DNA of 53,159 nt, the filler included, from an uncultured virus (IMG/VR IMGVR_UViG_2049941000_000878) (Duplodnaviria > Heunggongvirae > Uroviricota > Caudoviricetes). It is 6 parts of one record of this genome, joined end to end, with 100 filler letters (N's around TTAATTAATTAA, not from the genome) between each part and the next. Parts side by side here need not be neighbours in the genome. Positions count along the whole stretch, not along the records: positions 17,119 to 33,324 come from IMGVR_UViG_2049941000_000878; 5 more parts are not named here. One strand, written 5' to 3'. Under the pieces are notes generated by a model that ran no database searches, had not been told where the DNA came from, and worked only from the letters and a program-made list of their open reading frames with translations. Positions 4,981 to 51,285 of the stretch are shown here, piece after piece (positions within the stretch are counted from its first letter, which is position 1; each line of letters opens with the position of its first letter). The position numbers and the translations under genes were made by a program.

Positions 4981-5020
4981 GTGTTTCTAAACTGCGCCCT
5001 TCCGCTATTATGCTTTCGAG

Positions 5021-12623: not shown

Positions 12624-13356
12624 ATGACCGAGAACACCGCGAAATTCCTGCAAGTCATGGCGGCGCTCATGTTCGCCGCCGGCATCGTGCTGTACTGCGG
12701 GATAAGGTTCCGTCCCGCGTCCCCGGAGGTGATCGTCCGCGAGGTCCACGACACCGTCGTGCAGGTGCGCGTCGATACGTTCGTCGCGTACAAGCCGGTG
12801 CCGTTCAACGTCTACACCGTGGACACCCTCTACGTCCCGGTCGCCGTTCCGGGCCAGCATGACACCGTCTGGGCCGCGCTGCCGTGGGAGGAGAAGGAGT
12901 ACAGGGACACGACCTACCGNNNNNNNNNNGCGTTTCCGTCCCGCGTCCCCGGAGGTGATCGTGCGCGAGGTCCACGACACCGTCGTGCAGGTGCGCGTCG
13001 ACACGCTCGTCGCGTACAAGCCGGTTCCGTTCAACGTCTACACGGTCGACACCCTCTACGTCCCGGTCGCCGTTCCGGGCCAGCACGACACCGTCTGGGC
13101 GGCGCTGCCGTGGGAGGAGAAGGAGTACAGGGACACGACCTACCGCGCGGTGGTCGAAGGGTTCCGTCCGGGCCTGAAGGAGATAGAGGTCTACCAGAGG
13201 ACCAAGACCGTCACGGTGACGGAGCGCGTGAAGGTGGAGCCGTCCCGGTGGAGCTGGGGAGTGCAGGCCGGTGTCGGCACGAACGGCACGCAGGTGACGC
13301 CTTATCTCGGCGTCGGCATCCAATACCGCATCGGCTACTTTGATTTCACGAAATAA
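12624..13356 (+). CDS. Spanin-like (Rz-type) membrane-anchored protein, two overlapping variant fragments
   Basis: N-terminal TM, repeated DT(V/L) motifs, C-terminal beta strands WSWGVQAGVG..PYLGVGIQY. Confidence 0.6.
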
Positions 13357-13579: not shown

Positions 13580-14236
13580 GATGCGGCTGAAGGGGTCGCG
13601 CGGTATCAATATCCGCCCGGTGTCCTCGTCGTTGTAGCGCGCACGCGCAGCGTCGTAGATGTGCGCCAGCTTCATGACGTGACGCGAAGCCGTCCCGCCG
13701 CCCTTCGGCTTGCCGGTCTCCACCAGCGCCTTCTTCGTGTACGACCACTGCAACTTGTTCTCCGCGTCCGTCGCCTCCATGTAGTCCAGGATCAGCCGCC
13801 GCGTGATGTCGTTCACGTCAAGCTCGCGCCGCCCCAGGTACCGTTCCAGCGAACGCAGCGCGCCCTCGTAGTTCCGCCGCGTCGACTCCGCCTTGCAGGT
13901 GATCCACGAATCCGCGAAGGTGAAGAAATCCAGCCGGAACGCATCGGCACGCATGGCAGCGCGGATGTGGTCCACCAGTTGCACGACCGTCATGTCCTCC
14001 AGGTCGAAGGGGTTGATGTCCGCGATGGCGGCGCGCATCTGGACGATGATCTCGTCGCAGCGCGACAGGATCTCCGGGTTCTTTATCTTCAGGGAGCGCG
14101 TGAGGTCCGAGGGCCGCGCGTACAGGGACGTGGGTATGCGCCGCTGCCCGCGGTTGTGCAGGACGCGGATCTTGACGTTGTAGGTGCCGTCCCCTCGCTT
14201 GTCGCCGGGGATGACCACCGCCTTGAATGATGGCAT
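13580..14236 (-). CDS. int: Tyrosine integrase, N-terminal arm-binding and core-binding part
   Basis: K..DGTYNVKIRV.H....RIPT, DFFTFA and STRRNY...L..LE.YLG motifs of Bacteroidota integrases. Confidence 0.85.
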
Positions 14237-14303
14237 GATGTATCAGTGTTAAGCGTGCCGACAACACCGGACGAGCCGACATTTATCCGACAACATTTGC
14301 ACC

Positions 14304-14311
14304 CAAAGATA
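14304..14311 (-). promoter_or_regulatory. Bacteroidota -7 promoter element (TATCTTTG) upstream of the integrase
   Basis: Matches TAnnTTTG; conserved in variant copy 14415-14536. Confidence 0.6.
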
Positions 14312-14546
14312 TGGAAATTTTGCGTAAAATTGCAACGGTCCGCCCACTTCAGTGGCGCTGACCGCCCCCTGACGTGCGTGGGTGGCCGTTTTTCCGGTCT
14401 TTTTNNNNNNNNNNATATCCGACAACATTTGCACCCAAAGATACGCTAAATTTAGCGAAAATTGCACACATCCGGCGATGTCACCTGCGCTGACCGCCCC
14501 CTGACGTGCGTGGGTGGCCGTTTTTCCGGTCTTTTTNNNNNNNNNN

Positions 14547-15449: not shown

Positions 15450-15988
15450 TCACATCTTCTACCCCGAAGTCAAGTATCGAACAGATCCTGGACATTCGCG
15501 AGTTTATTGACTGCTATCTTATGATGGAAGTATGTAACGTATGGGATTCGTGGGCGAGGAATACGCTGTATGGTAGTTGGGACGGTCAGCATTTCGCCCC
15601 GATGGTGTACGACATGAACAACTCCTTCAATGGGTTTGGCGGAAAGAATACCGGCCCTTATACCGCATATTATCCTCCGACCAGCGACACCTACAACCAA
15701 AAAGCGCGTTCGATGTCGTGGTTCGTCGCTCTTGAAGCCATCCTCGCCAACGACATAAGGGACAGGTACAAGGAGCTGCAATCGCTCGGCGTGTTTACGG
15801 TAGAAAACATTGTAGGGCTGTTCGACGAATGGGCGGAATGGGTCGGATTCAACGCCTACGCCAGGCACGCGAGCAGATGGCCGGATTGCCCCAGCCTTAT
15901 CGGCACCAACCGTGACATAGATAAAATTTCAGTTCTCCGTGATTGGGTGTCACAGAGAATAGCGTTCCTTAACAACAAATATCTTTAA
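15450..15988 (+). CDS. CotH-kinase-like C-terminal domain (alternative tail module)
   Basis: FIDCYL......WDSWARN....W......PMVYDMNNSF...WV.QRI.FL pattern; lower GC. Confidence 0.65.
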
Positions 15989-16359: not shown

Positions 16360-16544
16360 ACAAGGAAACACTCAAGAAACTGGCGGCGTTCTTCTGCACC
16401 TGCTTCGGTGTGGTAGGCGCTCTGGGCGGGACGATCGTCGCCGCCGTCAACGGCTCCGGCTTCATCGCGTTCTGCGTGGCAGCGTGCGGTGCTATGGCCG
16501 CGCCGTTCATACTGAAACTATGGAAGGATGATCCCTGCGAGTAA
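16356..16544 (+). CDS. Small two-TM protein
   Basis: Hydrophobic 62-aa ORF overlapping both neighbours. Confidence 0.55.
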   Translation: MNKETLKKLAAFFCTCFGVVGALGGTIVAAVNGSGFIAFCVAACGAMAAPFILKLWKDDPCE

Positions 16545-16946
16545 GCATTATTTCGACCTGTGGGAGTTCATCAAAAGCGACACCGCCGAGGCGAAGGGGA
16601 TAAGCAATTTCCCGACGTTCGAGGTGGTGGCGCGTCTCTCGCAGTTGCGTGACGAGATCCTGGACCCCATGCGCGAGGCGTGGGGCGGTCCGCTGGTGGT
16701 GACGTCCGGCTATCGCTGCAAGGCGCTGAACAAGGCGGTCGGAGGCGTGGCGAACTCCGCGCACCTGTCCGGGTGGGCGGCTGACATCCGTCCGACGGAC
16801 AAGCGACGCACGGCGAAGTTCATCCTCTGGGCGGCGTGCTGGCTGGAGGAGAACCGCATCAACTACGACCAGGCGATAGACGAGAACGTGAAGGGTGAGA
16901 GGTGGCTGCACATCGCCCTGAAGTCCAACGACGGAAGGCAGCGCCG
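16528..16946 (+). CDS. Endolysin, peptidase M15 (Zn D-Ala-D-Ala peptidase fold)
   Basis: TSGYRC..LN..VGG...SAH..G.AADI and WLHI motifs. Confidence 0.88.
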
Positions 16947-17118
16947 NNNNNNNNNNCAGATCGGGGGCGAGAGGTGGCTGCACATCGCCCTGAAGTCCAA
17001 CGACGGAAGGCAGCGCCGNNNNNNNNNNNNNNNNNNNNNNNNNNNNNNNNNNNNNNNNNNNNTTAATTAATTAANNNNNNNNNNNNNNNNNNNNNNNNNN
17101 NNNNNNNNNNNNNNNNNN

Positions 17119-17448
17119 GGTCACATCCAACGACGTCCTCCACTCTGCGGTGGTAATTACACCGCTTATGTAAATAAGGAACTCAAAGCCTTGAGCGCAT
17201 TTGATTGTATAATCGCCATTGTCTTGAGTAATCAGCTGTGAGACCATACGGATGCGCGTATTGTCGGCGTAGTTGGTGATGTTTCCCGAAGAATTGGGCG
17301 CGTTTATCGAACCGACCTCAAATTCTCCCAAGTCAATCTTGCTGTTTCTCTCAAGGATTGTATCTGTTCTGTCTCCCAAGACCTTTCCCATTTGGGCGGT
17401 CAATGCTTTGTCGGCGCCTCCTGTGTGAAGGTCATTCACCAGGCCGAT
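17119..17448 (-). CDS. Tail fibre fragment (another variable module)
   Basis: VNDL.TGG.DKALTAQMGK.L fibre motif followed by low-GC beta-rich sequence. Confidence 0.55.
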
Positions 17449-17459
17449 NNNNNNNNNNG

Positions 17460-17804
17460 ATCGCCGACCCCTCGGTGTCTTGGTGCGGCCAGCTCGGACA
17501 CGGTCTCGTCTTCGCTTACGGACGTTTCCGACCGAGGGCGTTACCCTTCGTCTGCTGGCTGAACGTGCCGATGGCGCGGGAACACGGTATCCGCTACTTC
17601 GACGAGACGCGGACCTGGAAGCTGGAGCCGACGATGTTCTACGATACGGGGGCGTCCTTCTATCTCGACTGCCGACGGTTCGACCTGCCGGAGCGCCAGA
17701 TCTGCTGGGAGGATTACGCCGTCCACTTCAAGGGCGGCAGCTGGGATGACCGCGACCCGGCGGAGTTCCTGTGGGAGAACCGCGCGCTGTACGTTTCCAA
17801 GTGA
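17460..17804 (+). CDS. Glycosyltransferase, C-terminal half
   Basis: The first ~50 bp overlap 18727-18776; YDTG and HFKGGSW motifs. Confidence 0.7.
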   Translation: MADPSVSWCGQLGHGLVFAYGRFRPRALPFVCWLNVPMAREHGIRYFDETRTWKLEPTMFYDTGASFYLDCRRFDLPERQICWEDYAVHFKGGSWDDRDPAEFLWENRALYVSK

Positions 17805-17811
17805 GGGCGCA

Positions 17812-17897
17812 GCGCTATTATTATAGTGAGAGTTCAAAAGTTGACAGAATCTTGAGATTATCAGTGTTAAGCAGGGGCCGCAGTGATGCGGCCCTTT
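17812..17897 (+). ncRNA. Candidate small antisense RNA, unit 2 (motif + variable region + GUGA hairpin)
   Basis: GCGCTATTATTATAGTG, ~44 nt, then the 10-bp stem AGGGGCCGCA-GTGA-TGCGGCCCTT; contains 14 nt complementary to the integrase leader. Confidence 0.55.
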
Positions 17898-17923
17898 GCT
17901 ATTTTATAGTGAAGTCTTTTTTT
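17898..17923 (+). ncRNA. Start of candidate small RNA unit 3 (truncated by gap)
   Basis: GCTATTTTATAGTG immediately after the unit-2 hairpin. Confidence 0.4.
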
Positions 17924-17933
17924 NNNNNNNNNN

Positions 17934-18276
17934 GGTCCTTCAGGCGCGTCTGCGGCGTCTTGGTGCGGTTTCTGACGGCACATGGTGGCTGCCGGTCCTG
18001 CGCGACCTTGACGACGACAAGAGCGTGGCATCGCAGAAGGTGAACCGCGGCCTGTCGAACTGGTGCAGGAAGAACGGCGTGGACCGCTTCACCTTCTACG
18101 CGGCGCGTCACACATGGGCGACGCTGGCGAGGAAGGCCGGCGTGGAGAAGGCGCTGGTGGACGAGTGCCTGTGCCATGTGGGTGATTACGAACTCACGGA
18201 CATCTACGCCGAGCGCGACTGGGACCTCATCAACGGCGCAAACGCGAAGGTGCTGGCGTTGTTTAGTTGGGACTAA
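17934..18276 (+). CDS. int: Tyrosine integrase, catalytic C-terminus
   Basis: TFYAARHTWATLA, L.H and TDIY motifs. Confidence 0.88.
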
Positions 18277-18297
18277 ACCTTTCCAATGGGCCGGCTG

Positions 18298-18379
18298 GCG
18301 CTATTTTATAGTGTCAAAAATTTTAGTTTCATAGTGGTTTGAGTAATTCGCGCCTGCGCCGTGACGGTGCGGGCGTTTT
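18298..18379 (+). ncRNA. Candidate small antisense RNA, unit 1
   Basis: GCGCTATTTTATAGTG, ~36 nt whose complement reads like a translation start, then the CGCCTGCGCC-GTGAC-GGTGCGGGCG-TTTT hairpin. Confidence 0.55.
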
Positions 18380-18387
18380 CCGTATGT

Positions 18388-18776
18388 ATGGATATAGCCT
18401 TCGTTCACTACAATACGCCGGAGCTGTCCGGCGCGCTCGTCCGCAGCATTCGCAAATGGACGCCGGACGCGCGGATCACCGTCTTCGACAACAGCGACCG
18501 CAAGCCCTTCCCGGAGACGGAGGGCGTCACTATCTACGACAACACCCGCGCCCAGATTATTGACTTCGACGCGTTCCTCGAAAGGTTCCCGCGACGGAAG
18601 CTCGACGAGAAATCGAACTTCGGCAGCGTCAAGCATACGATGTCCGTGGACTGGCTGTTTGACGTCCTGACGGACGGGTTCGTCCTGCTCGACTCGGACG
18701 TCCTGCTGAAGCGTGACGTCTCGGAAATCGCCGACCCCTCGGTGTCTTGGTGCGGCCAGCTCGGACACGGTCTCGT
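18388..18776 (+). CDS. GT-A fold (GT2-like) glycosyltransferase, N-terminal half
   Basis: VHYNTPE, VFDNSD and LLDSD (DxD) motifs. Confidence 0.75.
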
Positions 18777-18786
18777 NNNNNNNNNN

Positions 18787-19011
18787 ATGCTCCGACGGCT
18801 GGACGCGCTTATCAAGCTCGTTCGCAATCTTTATGGCCTTTGCTACCAGCGAATCCGTCAGCAGCCGCGGGTTCCCATTCATGGCTGAACTCAATGTGGT
18901 CCTATTTATATCCAGCAGGGCGGCAAATTCCGTCTGATTTCTGACGATGCCGGAGGAAAGGCAGCGCTCGTATGCGTCCTTGAGCGCGTCCAGTTTGACG
19001 TTTTGTTCCAT
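18787..19011 (-). CDS. CI-like repressor N-terminal HTH (variant A)
   Basis: NQTEFAALLDINRTTLSSAMNG XRE-type HTH, divergent from the early genes. Confidence 0.75.
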
Positions 19012-19069
19012 AGTGTAGATTTTTTGAAAATAATTGTCGAGAAATTGTTGATTATTTGATTTTTTGTTG

Positions 19070-19099
19070 TATCTTTGTAACACCTTACAAACAAAGTTA
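19070..19099. promoter_or_regulatory. Overlapping divergent promoters with a palindromic operator candidate
   Basis: TATCTTTG (+, 19070-19077), TAACTTTG (-, 19092-19099) and TTTGTAA-cacc-TTACAAA (19074-19091); the variant at 19438-19467 has the same two-promoter layout. Confidence 0.65.
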
Positions 19100-19123
19100 A
19101 ACAAAATTCAACAGCACACCACT

Positions 19124-19312
19124 ATGACACGCGAAGAAATTACCCAAAGAATCGAGGCCCTTTCGGAGGAAATGTTCCTGCTCGGTAAAGACTGCACCTC
19201 CCAGCACTTCAATGAAGAAGGGAATATCCGTGCCGCCCTCCGCATCGCAGGCGAACTTCTAAAGAACACATCCTACACGCTGGACGACATCGCCGGCGAG
19301 TTGAGCGCATAA
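19124..19312 (+). CDS. First early gene, hypothetical (variant at 19493-19684)
   Basis: Two homologous copies (LG..CT..HF...G..RA.L..AGE.LKNTS). Confidence 0.7.
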   Translation: MTREEITQRIEALSEEMFLLGKDCTSQHFNEEGNIRAALRIAGELLKNTSYTLDDIAGELSA

Positions 19313-19685
19313 GACTGAACCGAGGGGCGTGTTTCGGAAACGCCTGGCAGCCTTCGTAAGTCCAGGAGCGCAGGTNNNNNNNNNNAAATAAACGTGAAAT
19401 TTTTACACAAATGTTTTGTTTTTACAAAATAAATGTGTAGATTTGCATCAAACAATACACAAAGGTACAACAAAACTCAAAACAACAAGGCCATGACAAT
19501 CGAAGAACTCTCCCAGAAGATAGACGATCTCTCCCAGAAGGTCTACGAACTTGGAAGGAGCTGCACCGATGAACACTTCCAGCAGGACGGCAAGCACCGC
19601 GCGATTCTCTGCCTCGCCGGAGAGTTCCTGAAGAATACGTCCTTCACTATGGATTCAATCTTTGAAGAATTAACTACCGAATAAT

Positions 19686-19880
19686 ATGGCAACTGACACC
19701 CCCTTACTCACTCGTTTACGCGAAATGAACATCGGCGACAAAGTGACCGTGAGCATCGACACCTACGGCTACAACACCGTGCGCCGCTACGCCTGCGACC
19801 TCGGAGTGTTTCTGGACCGCCGTTACTCTACGCACGTCAACCGCGCCGACCGCACCTACACCGTCACCCGCTTATCGTAA
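19686..19880 (+). CDS. Small Cro/Xis-like DNA-binding protein (variant at 21969-22154)
   Basis: L..M.IG......Y.TVR.YA..LG family; position in the early operon. Confidence 0.55.
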   Translation: MATDTPLLTRLREMNIGDKVTVSIDTYGYNTVRRYACDLGVFLDRRYSTHVNRADRTYTVTRLS

Positions 19881-19977
19881 CGCCATGATCCCGCAGAACG
19901 TCCCCGCACAATACCGCAACCTCNNNNNNNNNNGGAGCCGTGACGGTCCCGCCTGCTTCTTTTATGTCCGGGCGTGT

Positions 19978-20722
19978 CTACTGGATCATCCGGAGGAGGA
20001 CGCGCCAGACGCCGCGGATCTCGTCGCGTGTGACGACTATCGGCTGGTAGGCGGGATTGTCGCTTCGCAGGATGAACGTGCCGTTCTCGCCCTGGTCGAT
20101 GCGCTTCAGGACCGGACCGTCCACGGTGTCGATGACGTGGACCTCACCCCATGCGATGACGGACTTGACACGTTTGAGAAGCACGCGCGCGCCCGCAGGG
20201 AAGCCCGGAGCCATTGAGTCGCCTGTTACCTCGAAGGCCAGCTCTGCGCCGCGTATGGGCGACGTGATGCGCTCGCACTCCCATTCCTCGACACCCTCGG
20301 AGAATCCCTGGAGGGCGCCGCCNNNNNNNNNNTGGAGCCATTGAGTCGCCTGTTACCTCGAAGGCCAGCTCTGCGCCGCGTACAGGGGACGTGATGCGTT
20401 CGCACTCCCATTCCTCGACACCCTCGGAGAATCCCTGGAGGGCGCCGCCTCTGACGGCGTAGGGGACGATGGGGACGGTGTCGGCTGGAGGCGCTTCCTC
20501 GCCCTCCATCACCGGACCTTCACCGGTCAATAAATATTCCATGCGGAATCCGAACACGTCGGCCCAGCTCCGCGCCACGGTCGGTCCGAGCTTGCGCCCG
20601 GATAACTGATTGCTGACCGCTTGCTGGGAAACACCCAGGCGGTCGGCTGCATCGCTCATGCTGATACCGTTTTCTGATAAGAACGCCCTCATCTTGGACG
20701 CGATCTCTTTTCCTTTTTCCAT
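19978..20722 (-). CDS. CI-like repressor (variant B): XRE HTH plus S24 peptidase, in overlapping fragments
   Basis: AADRLGVSQQAVSNQL HTH; V.GDSM.P and LKR catalytic motifs. Confidence 0.85.
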
Positions 20723-21148
20723 ANNNNNNNNNNNNNNNNNNNNNNNNNNNNNNNNNNNNNNNNNNNNNNNNNNNNNNNNNNNNNNNNNNNNNNNNNNNNN
20801 NNNNNNNNNNNNNNNNNNNNNNNNNNNNNNNNNNNNNNNNNNNNNNNNNNNNNNNNNNNNNNNNNNNNNNNNNNNNNNNNNNNNNNNNNNNNNNNNNNNN
20901 NNNNNNNNNNNNNNNNNNNNNNNNNNNNNNNNNNNNNNNNNNNNNNNNNNNNNNNNNNNNNNNNNNNNNNNNNNNNNNNNNNNNNNNNNNNNNNNNNNNN
21001 NNNNNNNNNNNNNNNNNNNNNNNNNNNNNNNNNNNNNNNNNNNNNNNNNNNNNNNNNNNNNNNNNNNNNNNNNNNNNNNNNNNNNNNNNNNNNNNNNNNN
21101 NNNNNNNNNNNNNNNNNNNNNNNNNNNNNNNNNNNNNNNNNNNNNNNN

Positions 21149-22646: not shown

Positions 22647-22928
22647 ATGGACACGAACTGCAAGCCTATCTGGCAGTGGGTCGTCCGCTTCGAGTGGCAC
22701 CGGTCCATGAATTTCGACAATCCCTGGTGGTATTGGTTCAACGACGTGCGCTGCTTCAACACCAGCGCCGAGGCGGACGAGTTCGCCCACGCCGACCATC
22801 CGGAGTTCCCCGGCTTCCGCGTCAAGGCGGTCTATGCCGAGGCCATTCCGCGCCTGAAGAACGCCCTCGCATCCGCAGGCGAGGCCTACTATGGACAATG
22901 CACTGACGAACAACTTGTAACGCTTTAA
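22647..22928 (+). CDS. Hypothetical protein
   Basis: Conserved in variant 26573-26740. Confidence 0.6.
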   Translation: MDTNCKPIWQWVVRFEWHRSMNFDNPWWYWFNDVRCFNTSAEADEFAHADHPEFPGFRVKAVYAEAIPRLKNALASAGEAYYGQCTDEQLVTL

Positions 22929-22941
22929 CACTTAACCCACT

Positions 22942-23477
22942 ATGGCAGATAATCTCAACCTCTACAACAAGTGGCGCACGGCGCCGGAGAACGCGCTGAA
23001 AACCATCACCGCGGGCAACCTCAAGGGTAAGTCCGACATCAATCCGCAGTGGCGTATTCAGGTGCTGACCGAGACCTTCGGCCCGGTCGGCTTCGGCTGG
23101 TACACCAAGATCATCGAACACTGGACCGACACCGAGACGATCGGCGGCAAGCTGGAGCGCGTCGCGTGGGTCCGCGTGGAACTCTATATCAAGCAGGGCG
23201 GCGAATGGTCCGCACCTATCGAGGGCATCGGCGGCAGCAAGTACGCCGGAAAGGGCCGCGGGGACGAACTCAACGACGAGGCGTTCAAGATGGCCGAGAC
23301 GGACGCGATCAGCGTGGCCTGTAAGAAGCTCGGCATCGCCGCGGACGTGTACTGGAACACGACCAACACGAAGTACAGCGCAACCCAGCCGGAGCCGCAG
23401 CAGCAGGCCTCGACGAAGTACAAGCCAATCGGGCTGCACCCGGAGGACATCGACTGGCGGAACTGGCTGGTACAGCA
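22942..23477 (+). CDS. Rad52/Sak-family single-strand annealing protein (truncated)
   Basis: DINPQWRI..LTE.FG..G.GW and EAFKMA.TDAIS.A.K.LGI..DVY motifs. Confidence 0.8.
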
Positions 23478-23708
23478 NNNNNNNNNNAGTACAGACTTTA
23501 TCGGTGGATGCTCGACATCCCCGAAATCAAGAGCAATAAGACCAGGACAGCTTTCGCCTTCGCCCTGGAAGGTAGGCGCAGGGGGATGGACCGCAAGACC
23601 ATCACCGAACTGGCAGCGAAGTACGGTATGAGGGTCACGCCTGCTACATGGAGGCTCACCGACCAATACCTTGACAGGCTTATTGAGGAATACAATAACG
23701 AGTAAGAA

Positions 23709-27456: not shown

Positions 27457-27680
27457 NNNNNNNNNNCGTCATGGACGTATGCGCCGTCCGCGTCCACCAG
27501 GTACACCGCCTGGTCGAACTCGAATACAAACGCAGGCCCGCGGTCGATGGTGTTCACCATCTCCAGCGTGACCACGCCGTCCGCCTTCGGACCGCTGGCG
27601 GGGATGCGGACGACCTGCGTGTCGGTTGTGTTTTTCAAGTAAATCATTTCGTTAGCATAATAGCGGAGAANNNNNNNNNN

Positions 27681-33306: not shown

Positions 33307-33424
33307 ACCGAGCAACGGAGAAAANNNNNNNNNNNNNNNNNNNNNNNNNNNNNNNNNNNNNNNNNNNNTTAATTAATTAANNNNNNNNNNNNNNNNNNNN
33401 NNNNNNNNNNNNNNNNNNNNNNNN

Positions 33425-43025: not shown

Positions 43026-43124
43026 NNNNNNNNNNNNNNNNNNNNNNNNNNNNNNNNNNNNNNNNNNNNTTAATTAATTAANNNNNNNNNNNNNNNNNNN
43101 NNNNNNNNNNNNNNNNNNNNNNNN

Positions 43125-43957
43125 NTCATAGGGAATGTTCTGGATCTCGTTAAGAAAAAGGCGGTCGCGTGCCGGTCCGTGTACCTTACTGGGTGCGTCT
43201 GCGCTGAAAAACTCAATTAGAGAGCCATTTGGAAGCGTATAGATACTTTCTGACTTATTCCATGCCCTTTCGTTATAATAGTCCCCAAGGGCATCAGGAA
43301 AGTCACGGATGGCACCTCGTTTGAGGTGGTTNNNNNNNNNNNNNNNNNNNNNNNNNNNNNNNNNGTACGCGATTTTGCGCCCGGTGTCTGCGAGGATGCG
43401 CACGATGGCGGTGGGGTCGTGTGTAAAGCCGAAGTCAATCCCCCACACTTCGCGGAGGCCATAAGGGTCTGGCAGGGAGTCAATAGTGTCGAATTCGTAG
43501 ATCAGGCCTTCCAGCGTTCCGAATTGTCCGAGGCCATAAACCTGCCACCAGTTGCGGTCGCCTTGGTTGGATTCTATCTCGCGTATCTGTTCCGGCGTGA
43601 GGTGCGTGTTGTCCCTGTATGTCGAGTGAATGGTCACGCAGTCGGGGCGCGTTTCGATTTGTTCGTTGCCCCAGAAGGTCGCAGTAGGATTGTAGTCCAT
43701 GAGGATCAGGCCTCGGGTACGGACGAAAAGCTGGCGCGCGNNNNNNNNNNNNNNNNNNNNNNNNNNNNNGTTTCTGAAACCACGGAGGTCAGCGTGGGGA
43801 CTTCGTCCTGGATGGCGAGTTCGTAAATGGCCTGGAGGTTGGCGAAGGTTTTGCCGGATCGTGTACCGCCACAAGACGAGACGAAGCGGTCCGTCTGGCA
43901 GATCGCTTGCATCGTCTTGTAGTATACCGGCGTATATATCATTTTTTCGTGCTCCAT
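43125..43957 (-). CDS. terL: Terminase large subunit, divergent variant (gapped)
   Basis: GGTRSGKT, LFLNE and IDFGF motifs. Confidence 0.85.
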
Positions 43958-51206: not shown

Positions 51207-51285
51207 CGCGCGCCTGCGCGCCCGGAAACGGCTCTCATTCCACGATGGGGGCCGTCGCTATTTATAGTCGTAAGAATCTACGACT

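Follow-up and report, generated by a model that had tools for sequence, protein, structure and literature searches.

Gene order around the integrase gene

The window, by which we mean the whole stretch of 53,159 nucleotides that was analysed, comes from an uncultured virus of the Caudoviricetes and is a pseudomolecule (positions 1-53159) interrupted by 88 N runs, mostly of exactly ten letters (N10). Five junctions are N44-TTAATTAATTAA-N44 linkers, for example those at 17019-17118, 33325-33424 and 43026-43125. The pieces are out of order and some are inverted. Adjacent pieces are often near-duplicates that repeat each other at 90-98% identity, which suggests that at least two strains are mixed in the window. 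Because the window is scrambled in this way, distances and orientations within it are unreliable at face value. The genes of the integrase region are found at the following positions.

13580-14236, minus strand: integrase, N-terminal part (residues 1-219), with arm-binding (PF17293) and SAM-like (PF13102) domains
17935-18276, plus strand: integrase, C-terminal part (last 113 residues and stop), PF00589
18388-18725, plus strand: glycosyltransferase-like gene, first part, running straight on at 17459-17804
17459-17804, plus strand: glycosyltransferase-like gene, second part and stop, placed by a contig joint and by the order in relatives
19978-20479, minus strand: CI-like repressor gene (convergent), 3' part
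18787-19011, minus strand: CI-like repressor gene, 5' part, placed by a contig joint

The gene order was rebuilt from the synteny of relatives and from contigs of four bovine-gut DNA runs, with which the part 17119-20723 was compared. One collinear order is common to the close relatives L001/G001, L002/G002, L003/G003, L166, L167, L169 and L170, whose integrase N-terminal parts are 92 to 70% identical to that of the window. Specifically, the lysis genes are followed by the integrase promoter and leader, the integrase gene, small hairpin units and then, in most relatives, the glycosyltransferase-like gene, after which come more units, a convergent repressor gene, and divergent early genes that include a rad52-like gene. 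The rebuilt order of the window is integrase leader, integrase gene, unit 1, glycosyltransferase-like gene, unit 2, unit 3, and the convergent CI-like repressor gene. In the contigs, the joint from 18725/6 to 17459/60 is present in four of four runs and the joint from 20479 to 18787 in three of four, while 17922/3 continues through 43 letters absent from the window into 19934 in all four. The N-terminal integrase piece (13580-14404) is inverted and misplaced, lying on another scaffold than the C-terminal piece; the two are collinear in L001, L002, L003, L166, L167, L169 and L170. About 85 integrase residues between the two pieces are absent from the window (the integrases of the relatives have 417-418 aa), and the same loose end precedes 17934 in all four runs. 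The integrase-leader piece is linked to the unit-2 piece by synteny in relatives, not by a spanning contig.

The G003 homologue of the convergent repressor matches phrog_4 and Peptidase_S24, and the convergent gene in G003 is a predicted CI-like S24 repressor. In the true order, the module just upstream of the integrase gene comprises a CotH-like C-terminal part (15452-15985), an M15 peptidase (16528-16944) and a DUF6808 protein (12931-13353). The structural gene region holds four copies of a 94-nt coding repeat with 67-94% identity (1878-1971, 2100-2193, 2437-2530 and 2653-2746).

Blastn of a phage collection gave no match to either piece (unit-2 side or integrase-leader side), exact scans of viral contigs for the unit-2 and integrase-leader stretches gave 0 matches, and a search of genomes for an integrated close relative found none, the best integrase identity being 39%. 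A repressor-based search for relatives added only L247, a phage without units. Among the sequencing runs listed with the stretch, none is an RNA run. The window and its relatives represent a small clade of temperate phages from the cattle gut, whose hosts are probably Bacteroidales.

Anatomy of the hairpin units

Unit 2 would be one of several small plus-strand genes located after the integrase gene in this clade, each consisting of a phage-specific promoter-like motif or a preceding unit, then a body of 40-70 nt, then a putative intrinsic terminator with a GNRA loop. The elements of the three units of the window are as follows.

18280-18381, plus strand: unit 1, with promoter-like motif (18280-18311), body (18312-18350), and hairpin and T tract (18351-18381)
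17794-17821, plus strand: unit-2 promoter-like motif, TTTCCA, 16 nt, TATTAT, i.e. (G/C)TTTCCA-N13-CGCTATTAT
17828-17899, plus strand: predicted unit-2 RNA of about 72 nt, with its start placed from the −10-like box and its end from the T tract
17873-17896, plus strand: unit-2 terminator hairpin, 10 pairs with a GTGA loop, then a T-rich tail
17899-17923, plus strand: start of unit 3, which continues via the 43 missing letters into 19934 in contigs of all four runs

Both the promoter-like motif and the terminator of unit 2 are consensus matches on the plus strand, and its body spans about 70 nt; a minus-strand sigma-70-like site also lies inside unit 2, at 17847-17820. The hairpin and T tract of unit 3 lie near 19934-19965. 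Relative to the window, three other strains show differences at 17822-4, 17827, 17837, 17874 (plus a TC insertion) and 17884, with no change within 17852-17872 among the differences listed. The unit-2 loop of strains X7, X10 and X11 is GGGA, which is still a GNRA loop.

The relatives carry 3 to 7 hairpin units in tandem. When 20 units are aligned, the consensus structure is a hairpin of 7 pairs, 6 of them showing compensatory changes, and little is shared beyond it. A search of the window against Rfam 15 gave 0 matches at gathering scores, and a search of L001-L003 gave one match, below gathering (BTnc231 in L003, 24.6 bits versus a gathering score of 80.4, E=0.39).

The unit-2 promoter-like motif agrees with the sigma-70 consensus at 9 of 12 positions and differs from the Bacteroidota-type boxes of the integrase gene and the first early gene. 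The window has 3 occurrences of the bipartite pattern, where 0.03 would be expected, and the pattern precedes, with identical spacing, unit 1, some units in G001 and G003, and several structural genes (for example at 5003 in the window, 25633 and 28676 in G001, and 17031 and 20148 in G003). These data suggest that the phage has two promoter classes, the TTTCCA motif and the TATCTTTG boxes at the integrase gene and the first early gene, and that TTTCCA-N16-TATTAT would be a new class of promoter-like motif, common to units and structural genes. A scan of viral contigs for the motif gave at least 119 matches, mostly chance. In the window, (G/C)TTTCCA-N13-CGCTATTAT lies 20-30 nt before structural genes at 4984-5012, 806-814, 1171-1179, 27657-27665 (minus strand) and 51257-51267.

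The placing of the units raises the possibility that they are mainly cis elements, namely promoter-proximal terminators or leader RNAs, and that any complementarity to other genes is a by-product of their origin as inverted copies of gene starts, without function in trans. Such elements would gate read-through into the glycosyltransferase-like gene and insulate the integrase gene from the convergent repressor gene. Consistent with this, unit 1 sits between the integrase stop and the glycosyltransferase-like ATG at 18388, ending 7 nt before that ATG, and the gene has no promoter of its own; G003 has seven tandem terminator units before its glycosyltransferase-like gene; and units lie at the convergent gene junction. 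The structural genes with the same promoter-like motif, however, have no terminator after the motif. Weighing these points together with the phage-specific complementarity described below, we consider a purely cis role unlikely.

The bodies of the units carry a further signature. TTCAT, the complement of a start codon plus AA, is present in 14 of the 20 units (shuffles, mean 2.1 and maximum 7 in 500), while ATGAA is present in 1 of 20; a unit body therefore resembles the reverse complement of a start region. The same signature could be read from the minus strand, where the units would be the starts of mini-ORFs (ATGAA...) on transcripts that extend from the repressor gene: when reverse-complemented, the same 14 units show ATGAA after leader-like sequence, and the hairpins have, by eye, no minus-strand T tract, so that repressor transcripts could read through. 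We regard this as extremely unlikely, since the mini-ORFs, where they exist, vary in both length and sequence, with no ATG by eye in unit 2 itself, and since it is the plus strand that carries every T tract and the conserved −35-like box with its fixed spacing.

Complementarity to translation start regions

The segments of units 1 and 2 and the start regions that they match are located as follows.

17852-17872, plus strand: antisense segment of unit 2, of which 17859-17872 matches the integrase leader at −18 to −5 and 17852-17870 matches two blocks around the ATG at 22942
14241-14254, minus strand: putative target of unit 2, integrase-leader positions −5 to −18 (ATG at 14236-14234)
14304-14311, minus strand: −7 box of the integrase promoter, Bacteroidota type (TATCTTTG, read by eye)
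22925-22958, plus strand: start region of the rad52-like early gene (ORF 22942-23631), where two blocks complementary to unit 2 enclose a 15-nt loop that contains the ATG
19118-19127, plus strand: ACCACTATGA, a stretch spanning the start codon of the first early gene (19124-19312) and matched by unit 1 in antisense

The window contains exactly two copies of TATCAGTGTTAAGC, at 14241-14254 and 17859-17872, both on the plus strand, and no further site even with up to 2 mismatches allowed (100 shuffles, mean 0.07 matches). The integrase ORF is on the minus strand, and 14241-14254 corresponds to positions −18 to −5 of its leader; the plus-strand copy at 17859-17872 is therefore a perfect complement of the integrase leader. 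The overlapping segment matches a second start region. Specifically, the reverse complement of 17852-17862 is GATAATCTCAA, found at 22948-22958, and that of 17863-17870 is TTAACACT, found at 22925-22932, with the ATG at 22942 between the two blocks. An exact scan and the position of the ORF thus bear out two claims of the first-pass annotation, that the 14-mer of unit 2 is identical to the complement of the integrase leader and that two blocks bracket the start codon at 22942. Its gene names fared less well: Pfam, NCBIfam and PDB sequence searches gave no name for either the rad52-like or the glycosyltransferase-like gene, and "Rad52/Sak" and "glycosyltransferase" are only leads. In Atlas neighbour clusters, Rad52_Rad22 appears in 12% of members and GT2 in 20%, the GT2 lead for the glycosyltransferase-like gene being this 20% of one neighbour cluster; phrog_7838 is labelled "exonuclease".

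The predicted duplexes between units and start regions are more stable than most duplexes with shuffled sequences. The unit-2 body and the integrase start region give −24.6 kcal/mol (shuffles −13.2 ± 2.8, 0 of 500 as low), the unit-2 body and the rad52-like start region −20.6 kcal/mol (1 of 500 shuffles as low), and unit 1 and the first early gene −18.9 kcal/mol (5 of 500 as low). The two strands of the window together contain just 3 copies of TTAACAC, one each in the integrase leader, the leader of the gene at 22942, and the reverse complement of unit 2. By our estimates, a 14-mer match of a body of about 50 nt to anywhere in the window is expected about 0.014 times, and a match like the 11-mer alone about once (about 1) by chance somewhere in the window; the 11-mer is notable by its place at a start codon beside the 8-mer.

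The TATCTTTG box at 14304-14311, named from the Bacteroidota −7 consensus, which we take to be TAnnTTTG, places the 14-mer inside the transcribed integrase leader. Among relatives, the integrase promoter is conserved and positions −25 to −5 of the leader are hypervariable. The approximately 20 nt just before the integrase ATG (14237-14262, minus strand) vary in this way between the window and L166, L001, L002, L003, L167, L170 and L171, although the integrases are 70-92% identical.

Two repeated motifs lie close to these start regions. The ATGTTGTCGG motif of the integrase leader is conserved across relatives and occurs as three to four direct copies spread over the integrase promoter, the integrase leader and the final part of the upstream gene (14255-14300 of the window, minus strand; aligned leaders of L001, L002, L003, L166 and L171); the G003 version is ATGTTGCTC. 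They might serve as arm-type sites for the integrase or as an operator. Several early genes in different clade members are preceded by a junction motif, GTTTAACACTT(A/C)A, that contains the stop codon of the upstream gene (35198 and 35565 in G003, as oriented, and 22920-22941 in the window).

The exact 14-mer is lost in relatives because of the hypervariability of the integrase leader from −25 to −5. Units of several relatives nevertheless complement the integrase leader of their own phage, over 11 nt in L166 (with 5 more nt past a one-base bulge, by eye), 9 nt in G001 and 9 nt in L170. The 10-nt match of G003 falls within the repeated ATGTTGCTC motif and is possibly a DNA site, that of L167 is 7 nt, with 284 nt available for the scan, and G002 has no good match to its own leader (6-7 nt). 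The complementary segment differs in place, being in unit 1 in L166, in the sixth unit in G001 and in the last unit in L170. In L166, unit 1 complements two leaders of its own phage, that of the integrase gene over 11 nt and that of the rad52-like gene over 10 nt, with a sequence unrelated to that of the window. Furthermore, unit 1 of G002 contains an 11-mer complementary to its own first early gene at −14, and unit 2 of G003 a 12-mer complementary to its own rad52-like gene at −17. The covariation between guide and integrase leader that had been proposed as a check is thus largely borne out: the complementarity to the phage's own leader stands in L166, G001 and L170, while the 14-mer itself is lost and G002 misses.

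Quantitative comparisons show that complementarity is greater in cognate than in non-cognate pairs. When seven integrase leaders (−25 to −1) were compared with seven regions downstream of the integrase gene, 20 complementary matches of at least 9 nt were found, compared with 3.6 ± 2.2 for shuffled leaders (0 of 300 reached 20), 2 for reversed leaders and 7 in the sense orientation; five of the seven phages have a match of at least 9 nt to their own leader. In a 5 × 5 test, the units of five related phages, taken by terminator-finder coordinates, were compared with three start regions per phage (integrase, first early and rad52-like genes). The mean longest complement is 9.47 nt for cognate pairs (n=15) and 7.07 nt for non-cognate pairs (n=60), versus 5.80 and 6.02 nt in the sense orientation. 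Matches of at least 10 nt are found in 8 of 15 cognate and 3 of 60 non-cognate pairs (Fisher 4.7e-5); the three target genes were picked after matches had been seen and the five phages are kin. Without the three cells that prompted the test, the counts are 5 of 12 and 3 of 60 (p=0.0024), and the true phage pairing is the best of 120 label permutations.

Chance and a shared vocabulary of start regions could produce some of these matches: the leaders are A/C-rich and the unit bodies G/T-rich, and the 14-mer would be a lucky extension. Start regions of the clade do share words of the AACACT, CTCAAC and AAACC type, within and between phages, and matches are therefore inflated; the non-cognate pairs control for this inflation. 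The non-cognate antisense mean (7.07) already exceeds the sense mean (6.02). Matches of 10-12 nt are common in kilobase-scale scans, and single matches of 9-10 nt are within the reach of chance, as 20 shuffles per locus reached 9-13 nt in the scan of the wider integrase family. However, the expectation of about 0.014 for the 14-mer and the shuffle mean of 0.07 with 2 mismatches speak against a lucky extension, and the cognate excess is measured over non-cognate pairs of the same vocabulary, with p from 0.0024 to 4.7e-5. We therefore hold chance and vocabulary to be quite unlikely as the whole explanation.

Broader scans gave little or no signal. An ungapped pairing-score scan of the whole genomes G001-G003 was dominated by GC-rich noise, with start regions not above it. 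Comparing all called start regions of G001-G003 with their own arrays gave a modest excess, 3 of 139 with matches of at least 10 nt against 0 in shuffles, the 139 being those left after three artefact "genes" inside the arrays were dropped. There was no signal in the wider integrase family (94 distinct leaders; averages of 7.9 for antisense, 8.1 for sense and 7.7 for the null) or in the wider rad52-like family (43 start regions compared with 8 kb upstream; 9.0, 9.3, 8.8). The complementarity is confined to the clade that bears the units, or is invisible when kilobases are scanned. A candidate match between the L171 leader and the L181 units (12 bp with one G-U, by eye) was set aside: the duplex is not unusual, with 22 of 300 shuffles as low, and the two contigs may belong to different phages.

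The two copies of the 14-mer could also be DNA sites, either inverted repeats at which the integrase flips its own gene and the glycosyltransferase-like gene, or sites for a phage DNA-binding protein at the integrase gene, early genes and units. As the window stands, the copies are direct repeats on different scaffolds, with the linker 17019-17118 between them. In the rebuilt layout they are inverted repeats about 2.1 kb apart that flank the integrase gene, unit 1 and the glycosyltransferase-like gene. The inverted-repeat geometry that the first-pass annotation had offered as an alternative, with the recombinase gene inside the flanked segment, thus holds in the rebuilt layout only. As 4 nt separate the integrase copy from the ATG, an inversion would cut the gene off from its promoter, and the sites of one binding protein would co-vary between phages too. 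Against inversion, contigs of all four runs cross 17859-17872 with no joint or loose end there among those listed, a weak argument given that contigs drop rare variants. As to an attachment-site core, which would show as direct repeats at prophage ends identical to a host site, the unit-2 copy is internal to the phage in all four runs. In the relatives, the segment is not bounded by such repeats: the complementary stretch sits in differing units (L166, G001, L170), and with unit 1 holding it in L166 and the sixth unit in G001 there is no constant segment to be inverted. Against DNA sites in general, the targets are always sense and the units always antisense, as reflected in the cognate means of 9.47 and 5.80 nt, and the matches are not palindromic by eye. 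We consider DNA sites very unlikely.

The same cognate data bear on the cis reading of the units, which leaves unexplained both the preference for start regions of the own phage over those of relatives and the single L166 segment that matches two genes of its own phage.

Proposed antisense control and its relation to known systems

The complementarity, the plus-strand signals and the cognate specificity in five phages lead us to propose that the units encode trans-acting antisense small RNAs that block the translation starts of the integrase, first early and rad52-like genes, a reading that, coming from sequence comparison, we judge about equally likely to be right or wrong. In this model, unit-2 RNA would pair with the integrase leader at −18 to −5 and also with the rad52-like start, holding the AUG in a 15-nt loop, while unit-1 RNA would bind the first early gene across its start codon; duplexes at these start regions would keep ribosomes off the three messages. 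We infer that the unit RNA is made, acts in trans, represses, and does so at a particular time. The timing is perhaps late in lytic growth, as suggested by the promoter class common to units and structural genes. The same class, however, would also serve unit 1 together with the glycosyltransferase-like gene, in keeping with expression in lysogens. An alternative to action in trans would be action in cis within an integrase read-through transcript, above all if the matching unit directly follows the integrase gene, as in L166. The suggestion in the first-pass annotation that one RNA shuts off integration and recombination thus finds partial support, in the appearance of unit 2 as a plus-strand transcription unit and in the advantage of cognate over non-cognate pairs, and is weakened by G002, whose integrase match is only 6-7 nt.

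In working principle, the closest known analogue would be the c4 RNA of phages P1 and P7, an antisense RNA encoded elsewhere in the same phage genome, short segments of which pair around the ribosome-binding region of the target, and for which matched changes of RNA and target determine the specificity among related phages. Likewise, the units are encoded away from their putative targets, the pairing segments are short and located at start regions, and relatives show matched changes; unit 2 combines promoter and terminator signals (consensus matches), start-region complementarity, and matched change among five phages. The targets of the units would be the integrase and early genes, whereas that of c4 is an antirepressor. 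Also unlike c4, there are several tandem units, each with its own terminator; processing from a longer transcript is not implied; the host is probably a member of the Bacteroidales; and the units are known here from sequence alone.

Other systems are looser parallels. P22 sar and IS10 RNA-OUT are encoded opposite their targets and fully complementary to them, the IS10 target being a recombinase gene. They share with the units an antisense position over the translation start of a mobile-element gene, but unit 2 lies about 2.1 kb from the integrase leader and about 5 kb, in window distance, from its other target, and its complementarity is limited to 14 nt or 8+11 nt. A cis-encoded antisense RNA of this type can be rejected for unit 2, which follows the glycosyltransferase-like gene at about 2.1 kb from the integrase leader. 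In phage lambda, read-through transcripts carry sib, a cis-acting RNase III hairpin, at their 3' end, and OOP is an antisense RNA. As in these lambda controls, to which unit 2 had been likened from the outset, the element is downstream of the integrase gene on the same strand and would limit Int synthesis at the RNA level; unlike sib, unit 2 matches the 5' leader of the integrase message and has its own promoter-like motif. In Bacteroides, the seed-pairing small RNAs GibS, and RteR of CTnDOT, act on start regions or mobile-element operons. The units resemble them as small RNAs, here predicted, with intrinsic terminators in the same phylum, but match no Rfam family, the models of Bacteroides small RNAs included.

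In enterobacteria, the control of phage and transposon genes by antisense RNA is a classic theme, while a full-text literature search, judged at the level of abstracts, found nothing comparable for phages of Bacteroidota. What would be new is the arrangement of units in a tandem modular array, with several targets for each, together with the promoter class and the host group.

Some units complement the integrase leaders of other clade members: window unit 1 (18312-18350) matches that of G003 over 12 of 13 nt by eye, with an exact 9-mer, and unit 1 of G002 (L002 7283-7359) contains an 11-mer complementary to that of L167. Since some units match the leaders of relatives, the units might also act on superinfecting relatives, as an RNA-based layer of exclusion or immunity. 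More broadly, we put forward as a possibility, and a rather doubtful one, that the small RNA genes of the clade form a modular and fast-evolving "anti-start" array, in which inverted copies of start regions lie between a phage-specific promoter and a terminator and together shut down, at a set stage, the integrase, recombination and early-switch genes of the same phage, perhaps with an effect on superinfecting relatives. If this is true, the units would constitute a compact and readable regulatory code in which the target of each unit is legible from sequence, and the matched changes in relatives would show how these phages rewire the control of lysogeny.
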